From: Dictyostelium discoideum
Lineage: Eukaryota
Assembly: GCA_000004695.1 (NCBI GenBank)
Contig: CM000155.2
Coordinates: 3,040,001-3,104,000, forward strand
Length of the DNA: 64,000 nt
Direction of reading: 5' to 3'
Both the position numbers and the translations under genes were made by a program. The notes beneath the pieces were generated by a model, which was not told the origin of the DNA, made no database searches, and saw only the letters and a program-made list of their open reading frames with translations. Below, in pieces: positions 24,799 through 28,664 of the stretch. Each line of letters begins with the position of its first letter. Within the stretch, counting starts at the first letter, position 1.

Positions 24799-25118
24799 AA
24801 TTTTATTTTTTTTTTTTTATTTTTTTTTTTTTAAAAAAACGAAAAACGAAACTTTTTAATGGATATTTTTTCTTTTTTTTTTCCCTTTTAAATTTTTTAT
24901 TAAAAAGATTTTAGTCTAAAATAACCTTTTTTGGAATAAAATAAAATAAATAAATTAAACCAAATGCTTCGGAATGTGAATATTGAAGGCCTACACTAAA
25001 TCCAACATGGATAGCTATCCAATATTCAAATTGTAAAGGAATGGTAATCTTTCTTAAGCCATCTTTGGGCTCTATTGGTGGAACTATCGGCTGTATCTAA
25101 ATTTTAAAAAACGAATTT

Positions 25119-25234
25119 TTTTTTTTTTTGAATTGGATAACGCAATTATTATTTGCTTCTCCTTGAGATGCTAGATCTCATTTTATTTTATTTTTTTTTT
25201 TTTTTACAGGGTCTCTAAAAGAGGGGTTGGTTTA

Positions 25235-25267
<33 letters not shown>

Positions 25268-25558
25268 TTTCGAATTTTGAATTGTATTATTACTTTTGAT
25301 TAAAACATCTTTTTTGTCCAAACTTTTTTCTAAATCTTTTTTTATTTTATCGTCTGGTTCGTGATTGATGTTTATGACGTATTTGAATTGTTTTTTTTTT
25401 AATTGAGTTTTATCCACAATTTCGCTTATTTTTTGTAGGCATTTGTGTTGCTTAATATTTGTGGTGTTGTTTGTGATTTTCATTTTATTTTCTTTCTATT
25501 TTTTTTATTTTTCTTTAAAAAGTTAAAAATCTGGAAATTTTCTGATTAACTTGGTTCC

Positions 25559-25600
<42 letters not shown>

Positions 25601-25852
25601 TCTTTTTTATATGAAAAATGAAATAATCAAAAAAAGAGATTGTTGTTGTTTGTTTTTTTTCGATCTGATTATTTTTTGCTTTTTTTTTGAAAATTTTGCT
25701 ACGCATAATTCTCAAAACGAAACAAATAATAAATTACAATAAAGTAAAAAGATGGCTTTTTTAAATAGTTTATTTATTTATTTATTTGTTTTTTAAGTCT
25801 TTTTTATATGAAAAATGAAATAATCAAAAAAAGAGATTGTTGTTTGTTTTTT
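25119..25852 (-). mobile_element. TRE5-A non-LTR retrotransposon, internally deleted copy (#2), minus orientation
   Basis: From right to left: partial 199-bp A-module repeats (25598..25850), then a B-module/5'UTR, then the first 66 codons of ORF1 (MKITNNTTNIKQHKCLQKISEIVDK..., 25232..25483, identical to the N-terminus of the full ORF1 at 27744). It then jumps to the C-module (GAATTGGATAACGCAATTATTATTTGCTTCTCCTTGAGATGCTAGATCT at 25131..25180) and an oligo(A) tail (seen as T15 at 25116..25130). It is flanked by copies of the 15-bp sequence TTAAAAAACGAATTT at 25104..25118 and 25853..25867. Confidence 0.75.
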
Positions 25853-26054
25853 TTCGATCTGGTTAAAAAACGAATTTTTTTTTTTTTTTTGAATTGGATA
25901 ACGCAATTATTATTTGCTTCTCCTTGAGATGCTAGATCTTATTTGACTTTTTCGCTTATTTTTTGTAGGCATTTGTGTTGCTTAATATTTGTGGTGTTGT
26001 TTGTGATTTTCATTTTATTTTCTTTCTATCTTTTTTATTTTTCTGATTAACTTG

Positions 26055-26113
<59 letters not shown>

Positions 26114-26409
26114 TTATAGAAAGTACTGAGTGAATTATTGTATTTTTTGAGATGTTTAGGAAGTTCTATTGCGGGTGTTGATGATGATTTGTGACACCCC
26201 TTGTCCTGTTTTATCAATTGGTGCGTGGTGTGTTATTTTGTTTTTATATTGTTGATTTATTGAGTAAATTTTATTTGTTTTTATATTTGTTTCAGTTAGA
26301 AGTGCTGCGTCCAGCTTGTTGTTGTCTAAAACGGTGTTTATTATGCTGGCAGATTGGATGGTGTTGGATCCTTGGACGTTCCAAACACCTATTCTTATTG
26401 TGTTTTTCT

Positions 26410-27744
26410 TTATAGTTTTATTTGGGGTAGATTTTTATCTACCTTTTGAAGTTTCTGGTTTATTTTGTCTTCTAACTGATCTTTACTTTGTTCATTGTGT
26501 TGTTGGTCTTGTGTGTTTGTGGGGTTTTTTGATTTATTGATTTGTTTTAGAATTTCCTTGTTGAAGTTGTCTATATCTTCATCCATTTTTGTTTTTATGC
26601 TTTTTTGTCCATATTCACCCAATTTTGGTTTGACTGGTGTTTTGTTGGTCTTGTTTGTTTTGTCTTGTTGTTTCTTTTTTGGTGTGTTTAACAATTTACT
26701 TGGTGAATCGATAATTTTCGATGGTGTACCATAGGTTGGGCTGAAACTCATGATATGTTTTATTGGAGAGGAGAAGAACCATTGATTTGAAGGGATTGAA
26801 AGTGGGAATTCTATTTTTCTTATTGCATCAGTGTTTGGGCTGGTGAAGTCGAAGATATCATTTGCCTCTCTAAGTTTTTCTTCCGTTGTTAGTCCCTTTG
26901 TTTCGCCGTGTTGTTTTATTGGTGTATTGTATGGAGATGGTGGTTCGATAGGTTTTTCTGATTTTGTTTTAATTTCTTGATTGTTTATCGATTGTGTATT
27001 GATCTCATTCTCTATTCTTGTTAGTTCATCTACGTTTTCTAGTGATGCTTCTATTACCTTTTGAGCTGTATCATCTAGGGCCATAAATGTTTTATCATTA
27101 GATGAGGATGTGATTGGTGGGATAATGATTGTTCTTTTTCCTTGTTTTGGTATTTGTTCTGATGTAGATTGTGGTTGTTGTTCATCTGATTGTTTTTTAT
27201 ATTTGTTTTCTTCTTGATTTTCTGGTAATGAGGTTTGATCTCTCCATCCTTTGTTGGAGTGTCCAATTAATGTTAGATTGTCTAGTTCAATGATAGTGTC
27301 AAATTCTTCTACGACTCTTTTCACTGTTTTGATAATTAGAGTTTCGCCTTTAATTTCTAATTTAATTAGTTTACATCCTTCATTTTCTATTACCCATTCT
27401 ATTTCTGTGAGTGATTTATACCAATCAAAATCTGTATACATATTTTTTGGTCTTATAGTGGTTATAAATTGTCCTTTTAATTCTGCATCAAACATATTTA
27501 CAAAATAGATTACTGTACTAATACTGTCTGTGAGAATTTTGAATGTATTATTACTTTTGATTAAAACATCTTTTTTGTCCAAACTTTTTTCTAAATCTTT
27601 TTTTATTTTATCGTCTGGTTCGTGATTGATGTTTATGACGTATTTGAATTGTTTTTTTTTTAATTGAGTTTTATCCACAATTTCGCTTATTTTTTGTAGG
27701 CATTTGTGTTGCTTAATATTTGTGGTGTTGTTTGTGATTTTCAT
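26410..27744 (-). CDS. TRE5-A ORF1 protein (444 aa)
   Basis: Intact ORF within TRE5-A copy #1. Its first about 66 codons are duplicated in copy #2 (25232..25483). The protein is lysine- and glutamine-rich with no cellular homolog recalled, consistent with TRE5-A ORF1. Confidence 0.75.
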   Translation of the reverse strand: MKITNNTTNIKQHKCLQKISEIVDKTQLKKKQFKYVININHEPDDKIKKDLEKSLDKKDVLIKSNNTFKILTDSISTVIYFVNMFDAELKGQFITTIRPKNMYTDFDWYKSLTEIEWVIENEGCKLIKLEIKGETLIIKTVKRVVEEFDTIIELDNLTLIGHSNKGWRDQTSLPENQEENKYKKQSDEQQPQSTSEQIPKQGKRTIIIPPITSSSNDKTFMALDDTAQKVIEASLENVDELTRIENEINTQSINNQEIKTKSEKPIEPPSPYNTPIKQHGETKGLTTEEKLREANDIFDFTSPNTDAIRKIEFPLSIPSNQWFFSSPIKHIMSFSPTYGTPSKIIDSPSKLLNTPKKKQQDKTNKTNKTPVKPKLGEYGQKSIKTKMDEDIDNFNKEILKQINKSKNPTNTQDQQHNEQSKDQLEDKINQKLQKVDKNLPQIKL

Positions 27745-27819
27745 TTTATTTTCTTTCTATCTTTTTTATTTTTCTTTAAAAAGTTAAAAATCTGGAAATT
27801 TTCTAATTAACTTGGTTCC

Positions 27820-27867
<48 letters not shown>

Positions 27868-27870
<3 letters not shown>

Positions 27871-28535
27871 TCTTTTTTATATGAAAAATGAAATAATCAA
27901 AAAAAGAGATTGTTGTTGTTGTTTGTTTTTTTCGATCTGATTATTTTTTGCTTTTTTTTTGAAAATTTTGCTACGCAAAATTCTCAAAACGAAACAAATA
28001 ATAAATTACAATAAAGTAAAAAGATGGCTTTTTAAAATAGTTTATTTATTTATTTATTTGTTTTTTAAGTCTTTTTTATATGAAAAATGAAATAATCAAA
28101 AAAAGAGATTGTTGTTGTTGTTTGTTTTTTTCGATCTGATTATTTTTTGCTTTTTTTTTGAAAATTTTGCTACGCAAAATTCTCAAAACGAAACAAATAA
28201 TAAATTACAATAAAGTAAAAAGATGGCTTTTTAAAATAGTTTATTTATTTATTTATTTGTTTTTTAAGTCTTTTTTATATGAAAAATGAAATAATCAAAA
28301 AAAGAGATTGTTGTTGTTGTTTGTTTTTTTCGATCTGATTATTTTTTGCTTTTTTTTTGAAAATTTTGCTACGCAAAATTCTCAAAACGAAACAAATAAT
28401 AAATTACAATAAAGTAAAAAGATGGCTTTTTAAAATAGTTTATTTATTTATTTATTTGTTTTTTAAGTCTTTTTTATATGAAAAATGAAATAATCAAAAA
28501 AAGAGATTGTTGTTGTTGTTTGTTTTTTTCGATCT
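27868..28535. repeat. Tandem array of about 3.35 copies of a 199-bp unit (TRE5-A A-module)
   Basis: The unit AAGTCTTTTTTATATGAAAAATGAAATAATCAAAAAAAGAGATTGTTGTTG...GCTACGCAAAATTCTCAAAACGAAACAAATAATAAATTACAATAAAGTAAAAAGATGGC...TTTATTTATTTATTTG begins at 27868, 28067, 28266 and 28465 (truncated). A 1.3-copy version lies in copy #2 at 25598..25850. Confidence 0.85.
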
Positions 28536-28581
28536 CGTTAAAAAACGAATTTGTACCGATAATAAAATTTTATTTTCATCA

Positions 28582-28664
28582 ACCGGCTTTGGCGCAATGG
28601 TAGCGCGATTGACTGTAGTATTGAAAGTGATCAATCGGTTGCTAGTTCGAATCTGGCAAGCCGG
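28582..28664 (+). tRNA. tRNA-Tyr (anticodon GUA) with an 11-nt intron (28618..28628)
   Basis: The acceptor stem is CCGGCTT/AAGCCGG with discriminator A. The D-arm is GCGCAATGGTAGCGC. The anticodon stem ATTGA/TCAAT carries loop CTGTAG|tattgaaagtg|A. The T-arm is GCTAG TTCGAAT CTGGC. The intron lies 1 nt 3' of the anticodon, as in all eukaryotic tRNA-Tyr genes. It is followed by a TTTT terminator. Confidence 0.85.

Follow-up and report, generated by a model that had tools for sequence, protein, structure and literature searches.

Two TRE5-A retrotransposons sharing one 15-bp target upstream of a tRNA-Tyr gene of Dictyostelium discoideum: a probable case of repeated insertion at a single site

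Retrotransposons that integrate next to transfer RNA (tRNA) genes are known from Dictyostelium discoideum as well as from yeast. TRE5-A of D. discoideum is an element without long terminal repeats (LTRs) that integrates by target-primed reverse transcription. In published work 80% of its insertions lie at 47+/-3 bp from a tRNA gene, their orientation is fixed, the target duplications measure 10-16 bp, and non-templated 5' nucleotides, a hallmark of target-primed reverse transcription, are frequent. The autonomous form, TRE5-A.1, is built as AB-ORF1/ORF2-BC (ORF, open reading frame; A, B and C, modules), and the non-autonomous TRE5-A.2 as AB-ORF1-BC (Siol et al. 2011, PMC3159450). Tandems of two TRE elements at D. 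discoideum tRNA genes have been published (Spaller et al. 2017, PMC5391098; Barth et al. 2022, PMC9012585), with de novo insertions of tagged elements in 91 of 98 tRNA genes that were already occupied. Yeast Ty1 and Ty3 likewise make repeated, RNA polymerase III-directed hits at one tRNA gene; the likeness is an analogy alone, these being integrase-mediated LTR elements, in contrast to the non-LTR, target-primed TRE5-A. Here we describe a locus on the 3.6-Mb chromosome 6 of D. discoideum AX4, where two TRE5-A elements and three copies of one 15-bp sequence precede a tRNA-Tyr gene. The locus lies within a stretch of 64,000 nucleotides (assembly GCA_000004695.1, contig CM000155.2, positions 3,040,001 to 3,104,000), which was analysed as a whole and is called the window below.

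The 15-mer TTAAAAAACGAATTT is present in exactly three exact copies in the 64-kb window: copy 1, the tRNA-distal one, at 25104-25118, copy 2 at 25863-25877 and copy 3, adjoining the tRNA gene, at 28538-28552. The mean chance expectation is 0.02 matches, and none of 100 dinucleotide-preserving shuffles reached three. Every copy coincides with an element boundary, as a short element, X (25119-25862, 744 bp), fills the interval between copies 1 and 2 and a longer one, Y (25878-28537, 2660 bp), that between copies 2 and 3. A preliminary description of this DNA had given copies 1 and 3 correctly, but its interval for copy 2 (25853-25867) was 10 bp off. The gene that serves as targeting landmark, tRNA-Tyr(GUA), occupies 28583-28666 on the plus strand; it was recognised by ARAGORN and by the Rfam tRNA model (57.8 bits), and its anticodon GTA and an 11-nt intron after position 37 were read directly. 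The spacer between copy 3 and the gene is 30 nt, just as first described. The arrangement is, very probably, the outcome of two independent TRE5-A retrotransposition events in one staggered-cut target upstream of tRNA-Tyr.

For the identification of both elements, a full-length TRE5-A.1 copy (A1; L005 1-5460) from an independent long-read D. discoideum assembly, GCA_054883475.1, was used as reference; further copies were fetched from the same assembly. In A1, ORF1 is followed by an ORF2 of 1047 amino acids with an RVT_1 domain. X and Y are collinear, module by module, with A1 and with nine TRE5-A.2 copies, and the sizes of modules A, B and C are 199, 296 and 137 bp here as against 200, 290 and 137 bp in the literature. 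As both elements occupy the minus strand and the tRNA gene the plus strand, the head-to-head arrangement noticed at first inspection holds: the 5' ends face the tRNA gene and the oligo(A) tails are at the tRNA-distal ends. The 5' junction of Y (28537) is separated from the tRNA gene (28583) by 45 nt, and this distance, like the 15-bp duplication, falls inside the published ranges, in agreement with the position-specific integration that had been proposed. Both elements start at AGATCG, preceded by CC in X and by CG in Y. Distance and orientation, modular order, C-module positions and hairpins, ORF1, and a 15-bp duplication accompanied by 5' extra nucleotides all agree with TRE5-A, to which we assign both elements on these sequence features.

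Direct evidence on the state of the target before insertion comes from a wild D. discoideum isolate (GCA_054859355.1, L013), in which the orthologous tRNA-Tyr target is empty. The order there is tRNA-Tyr, the 30-bp spacer as in AX4, the 15-mer once (14/15 identical) and, directly distal to it, the flank AATTT(T)AGATAC. This empty site, with a single 15-mer between the same flanks, therefore proves that the three copies in AX4 are target-site duplications; an empty site of this kind had been anticipated from the AX4 sequence. In the sister species D. cf. discoideum (GCA_054859235.1, L014 9144-9355) the orthologous target holds a 5'-truncated TRE5-A-like insertion of about 175 bp, flanked by its own duplication, AAGTCGATTTTT(T)AAAA. 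On this sequence it is an independent, third hit on the same target, which has thus been re-used across species. The wild isolate has, in addition, about 120 bp that are absent from AX4, located about 200 bp upstream of tRNA-Tyr (L013 9470-9670). It also has a very short insertion, CGTTATCTGCTCCAATTC+A(11), between repeats of ACCATTCCTTTACAA, which looks like an extremely 5'-truncated C-module end.

The tandem and its triple repeat might also be thought an artefact of the Sanger-era AX4 reference, produced by mis-joined repeat modules. The comparison with GCA_054883475.1 bears on this from both sides. The A-module array differs tenfold between the two assemblies (3.5 versus 36.5 units), and the long-read assembly itself breaks within X, where two contigs end at window-equivalent positions 25170 and 25320. 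Against an artefact, the junctions flank/copy 1/X, X/copy 2/Y and Y/copy 3/tRNA are all reproduced independently, and the empty site of the wild isolate matches the predicted pre-insertion sequence. GCA_054883475.1, which from its locus-tag series, its date and the identical flank is probably the AX2-214 assembly of Holland et al. 2025, contains all three copies of the 15-mer (copy 1 at L012 198-212, copy 2 at L002 11842-11856, copy 3 at L002 2641-2655), both elements and every junction base for base. The tRNA-side flank, the sole flank compared, is 100% identical over 2657 bp; the assemblies differ in homopolymer lengths, in one substitution and in the copy number of the A-array. Concern about collapsed repeats was thus unfounded for the junctions and the duplications, but not for the length of the A-module array. 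We give practically no credence to an artefact and, on the accord of the two assemblies, take the tandem and the triple duplication as real.

A second alternative starts from one insertion, which would have been tandemly duplicated by unequal sister-chromatid or homologous exchange at the 15-bp duplications or at the terminal modules, the two products then diverging by deletion. A process of this kind, or an assembly duplication, probably does occur, as indicated by a tandem upstream of tRNA-Lys(UUU) in which two TRE5-A.2 copies are apparently identical (L020 3380-8570 and L021, at the far end of contig JBTAPE010000004.1). These two share the ORF1 protein, the number of A-units, the 5' junction TTTC|AGATCG and the duplication TATATCTAATTT. 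The contig itself measures 83.6 kb and has TRE5-A at both of its ends. The pair looks like a segmental or assembly duplication rather than two insertions. X and Y are of another kind. They differ in their 5' extras (CC versus CG), in their tails (11 versus 13 nt) and in their B-module variants; X holds 88 nt of C-module missing in Y, which lacks the full 137-bp C-module and the B/C junction of X, while Y holds ORF1, ORF2 remnants and the TRE5-A.2-specific junction. By these differences neither element is derivable from the other by deletion, and X and Y are independent insertions; origin by tandem duplication is very unlikely here. Both routes to a tandem, re-insertion and duplication, may exist, with the tRNA-Tyr locus representing two insertions.

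The order of the two events follows from the targeting rule. Of the three duplication copies, the tRNA-proximal one alone has the distance at which TRE5-A is targeted, and there is no tRNA gene near the distal copy (the nearest other one found by ARAGORN is 12 kb away), so X would have come first and Y second. The reverse order, with Y first, was considered and rejected, as no tRNA gene near the distal copy could have directed X there. The proposal that the longer element re-used the tRNA-proximal duplication is supported: the identity of both elements, their independence, the triple duplication and the empty site are directly seen, and the order is deduced. Private substitutions, 2/1968 nt in Y and about 2/744 nt in X, agree with this order and are weak evidence for it.

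Re-use of one duplication is not peculiar to tRNA-Tyr, as each of the five further mixed TRE5 tandems that were inspected shows it: GATTAATCACCAAT was found in two copies at L004, GTTTTGTAATTAAA in four at L005, GTACGTTATTATCTA in three at L008, ATATATATAATTTTA in four at L009 and CTTCTGTGAAAT in two at L010. Three of these loci (L005 5370-9170, L009 7980-8925 and L008 7985-8260) are stacks of three to four TRE5 elements or fragments with the same duplication between them. In the stacks a full-length young TRE5-A.2 stands beside the tRNA gene and short fragments of older lineages lie farther out, from which an order of arrival can be read. Compared with the TRE-TRE tandems described in the consulted parts of PMC5391098 and PMC9012585, the tRNA-Tyr locus agrees in the 45-bp position, the orientation, the 15-bp duplication and the 5' extras, and likewise has the newcomer between the tRNA gene and an undisrupted resident. 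Nothing essential differs; that the identical duplication is regenerated in each round is not stated in those parts and is seen here and at the five further loci. The double insertion is therefore ordinary, already described behaviour of TRE5-A.

The following course of events would account for the locus. The published model has the ORF1 protein guide TRE5-A to TFIIIB bound on tRNA genes and has the element integrate about 47 bp upstream of them through target-primed reverse transcription, its 5' end turned towards the tRNA gene; the anatomy of X and Y suggests that the same happened here. In the first event X would have been placed and the 15-bp target duplicated. In the second, Y would have been placed, presumably mobilised in trans by the ORF2 protein of TRE5-A.1. 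As the targeting complex would measure from the tRNA gene, the second event would have cut the tRNA-proximal duplication at the same two nicks and so generated the third copy. The plus-strand nick would lie after AATTT (AATTT^G), where TTT could pair with the poly(A) tail and act as primer. As a result, the last arrival would be the element that adjoins the tRNA gene.

Several points weigh against this account of two successive insertions at identical nicks. GCA_054883475.1 breaks inside X, its contig ends overlapping there by 150 bp that are repetitive, so that continuity through X depends on the AX4 reference. The tandem at tRNA-Lys consists of two apparently identical elements and looks duplicated, which means that not every tandem stands for two insertions. 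The order depends on the targeting rule, and too few private substitutions have accumulated to put that order to the test. When insertions were made experimentally at a single occupied locus, they were scattered over 44-48 bp, by which exact re-use is not guaranteed, and the account does not explain how often fixed tandems show it.

Element X, read on the minus strand, has the following parts. An oligo(A) tail of 11 nt (25119-25129, T(11) on the plus strand, read directly) is preceded by a complete C-module of 137 bp (25130-25266), which aligns to the TRE5-A.1 3' end and equals the published length. Next comes a single B-module (25267-25562), in which ORF1 starts and runs for about 66 codons and which matches both B-modules of TRE5-A.1, and then an A-run (25563-25597) with 1.4 A-module units, whose 5' end is the canonical AGATCG start (25563-25860). 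The two extra nucleotides CC of the element strand (25861-25862) are probably non-templated, as judged against internal unit junctions and other full-length copies. An ORF of 83 amino acids lies at 25232-25483 in the X region. X matches A1 at 1-402 and at 4968-5440, the two matches overlapping in the B-module, which fits the 5' B-module (A1 1-402) and the 3' one (A1 4968-5440) alike; its B/C junction continues exactly as the TRE5-A.1 3' end. Alignment to TRE5-A.1 and TRE5-A.2 copies therefore defined the modules, but yielded no unique internal breakpoint of the kind that the preliminary description had hoped to place. That description was right to see a deleted TRE5-A with A-modules, C-module and oligo(A); what it took for the 5' part of ORF1 is a single B-module with a normal B/C junction. 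As aligned, X is a clean A(1.4 units)-B-C element. Counted from the 3' end, the last 54 nt have C38 and A35 in stem I and C26 and T15 in stem III, as in the published C-module hairpin model, and fold into both hairpins (z = -3.1).

With TRE5-A.1, X shares the complete B/C junction, the 137-bp C-module and the normal A region of 1.4 units; it differs in lacking everything between the B-modules, both ORFs included, and in carrying lineage markers unseen in the sampled TRE5-A.1 copies. One of these is a C-module variant, GGTAAACCAACC, which the distal, older members of other tandems have too. The other is a B-module variant, AAAAATAAAAAAAATAG, which is also found in the A-B-C elements L010 8007-8518 and L008 ~880-1300. 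By these markers X is of an older sequence lineage. No match to the name "TRE5-A.3" was obtained in a literature search, though A-B-C elements and arrays of many A-modules may have received names before.

The origin of the A-B-C form admits a variant of the two-insertion account, in which X inserted as a longer element, a full-length TRE5-A.1 or TRE5-A.2, and later shrank to A-B-C in place when its two 290-bp B-modules underwent homologous recombination. Direct repeats of that length recombine readily. X has exactly one B-module, which matches the 5' and 3' ones equally, and its ends and duplications are intact, just what B-by-B recombination should leave behind; by analogy alone, the A-B-C form could have arisen in the way solo LTRs do, through exchange between direct repeats at the two termini. 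On the other side, A-B-C elements at at least two other loci share AAAAATAAAAAAAATAG, and the one at L010 shares GGTAAACCAACC with X as well, a hint that the A-B-C form may be a mobile lineage, though the sample behind it is small and the markers may just tag an old subfamily. Collapse in place is quite conceivable, though we lean towards doubting it. That the deleted copy arrived first, as was originally proposed, stands as to its being first, by the targeting rule, but not as to its having arrived deleted, since it may have collapsed after insertion.

Element Y, also on the minus strand, ends in an oligo(A) tail of 13 nt (25878-25890, T(13) on the plus strand, read directly). Its C-module remnant (25891-25952) equals the consensus in the terminal 49 nt and diverges in the next 13 nt, among them G50A in stem I. 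A truncated 3' B-module follows at 25953-26115, together with an A-run (55 A, 26057-26111) and 4 nt (26112-26115) that adjoin an ORF2 remnant. The ORF2 remnants (26116-26409) flank the 3.1-kb deletion of TRE5-A.2, with the junction at about 26172/26173 (A1 1763 to 4897). An intact ORF1 of 444 amino acids (26410-27744; DDB_G0293684 / XP_629018.1) is followed by the portion of the 5' B-module that is not translated (up to 27823) with an A-run (27824-27867), together 27745-27867, by an array of 3.5 A-module units of 199 bp (27868-28535, Tandem Repeats Finder) and by the 5'-junction extra nucleotides CG of the element strand (28536-28537), unlike those of X. Altogether Y is collinear with A1 1-1763, 4897-5146 and 5370-5442 plus A(13), while A1 1764-4896 (ORF2) and 5147-5369 are absent.

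In the loss of ORF2 and the retention of ORF1 Y agrees with TRE5-A.2 (PMC3159450), with which it shares the ORF2 junction, identical to that of nine canonical copies, the intact ORF1 and the 5' A and B modules. It departs from TRE5-A.2 at the 3' end, where the B/C deletion covers 223 bp (A1 5147-5369) in place of the 72 bp that leave 87 bp of C-module in canonical copies, so that Y keeps about 49-54 nt of it; it also has 3.5 to 36.5 A-units against the usual ~1.4. The earlier designation of the long element as TRE5-A.2-like, with tandem A-modules, a 444-residue ORF1 and oligo(A), thus holds, while Y is, from its structure, a non-canonical member, and its A-unit number is doubtful. The Y-type 3' junction AAGCGAAAAAGTCAAATAAGATC was absent from 16 other sampled copies, and for this reason the 223-bp deletion is probably private to Y; it possibly arose after insertion.

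The ORF1 of Y differs from the commonest ORF1 variant in 2 of 444 residues (S129L and N182Y) and shares 98-99% identity with the members of a multicopy family of proteins in D. discoideum AX4. Pfam found no domain in it, in agreement with the published statement that the TRE5-A ORF1 protein is dissimilar to ORF1 proteins of other retrotransposons. Lacking ORF2, Y would therefore depend on TRE5-A.1 in trans. In its C-module Y keeps C38, A35, C26 and T15, and stem III is intact; with G50A, stem I has 4 bp instead of 6, and the energy of the predicted fold rises from -11.3 to -6.7 kcal/mol. In a published retrotransposition assay, no activity was seen with a double mutant of stem I. It is doubtful that Y can serve as a source element. 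Y is a natural variant of TRE5-A.2, and if it arrived in its present form, the minimal 3' requirement for retrotransposition would narrow.

The A-module array of Y is the part of the locus on which the two assemblies disagree. Tandem Repeats Finder reported the 199-bp array in AX4 at 27842-28535 with 3.5 copies; in GCA_054883475.1 the array has 36.5 units and extends over 7.3 kb (L002 2658-9918). Among 17 TRE5-A.2-type copies of the latter assembly most have two A-unit starts, a count that corresponds to about 1.4 units, and the others have 3, 3, 8, 9, 22 and 37. The AX4 reference may have collapsed at the Y array; the counts suggest that either this happened or the promoter module expands in place. 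That Y truly has about 37 A-units (~7.3 kb) and not 3.5 and, separately, that the cut geometry is fixed per locus, we consider a serious prospect that stays somewhat short of probable.

Some further observations concern the surroundings of this and other tRNA genes in the window. About 25 bp downstream of tRNA-Tyr, at 28692-28708, there is a B-box-like motif, GGTTCGATTCT, which we take to be possibly an external B box of the kind that Dictyostelium tRNA genes have. An 89-bp, 5'-truncated 3' end of a retroelement (29558-29646, plus strand) is situated 47 bp upstream of a minus-strand tRNA-Glu(UUC) gene (29438-29510) in the expected orientation. Its flanks at 29545-29557 and 29647-29659 read TATACAGGTATTT and TATACAAGTATTT and are identical in 12 of 13 positions. 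Its C-module shares 84% identity with the TRE5-A one. When the region was compared with the window by BLAST, poly-T matches predominated, and 29574-29646, a part of this fragment, gave the sole informative hit. The fragment closely resembles L009 ~8480-8575, which follows a different ORF2, and is probably of TRE5-C type. Upstream of a second tRNA-Glu(UUC) gene (13148-13220) no recognisable TRE5-A was seen and the target appears unoccupied; across about 120 bp, its flanks share 93% identity with those of the tRNA-Glu gene at 29438-29510.

Taken for itself, the tRNA-Tyr locus is a clean textbook case of tRNA-gene-targeted retrotransposition, for which an empty site serves as control and a sister species provides an independent hit, and its significance beyond annotation is small. 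The tenfold disagreement in A-units and the strict re-use of the cut site are its sole mildly unexpected items. Should the number of about 37 units be true, the promoter modules of inserted TRE5-A elements would grow in place into satellite-like arrays that were collapsed in the AX4 reference, which probably under-represents such A-module arrays, with effects on repeat annotation and read mapping. Exact re-use of the nicks, with up to four successive insertions and at the sister-species ortholog, would mean that the cut geometry is fixed by the locus. Successive insertions would stack outward from the tRNA gene and regenerate the same duplication each time, so that the order of their arrival can be read from the stack.

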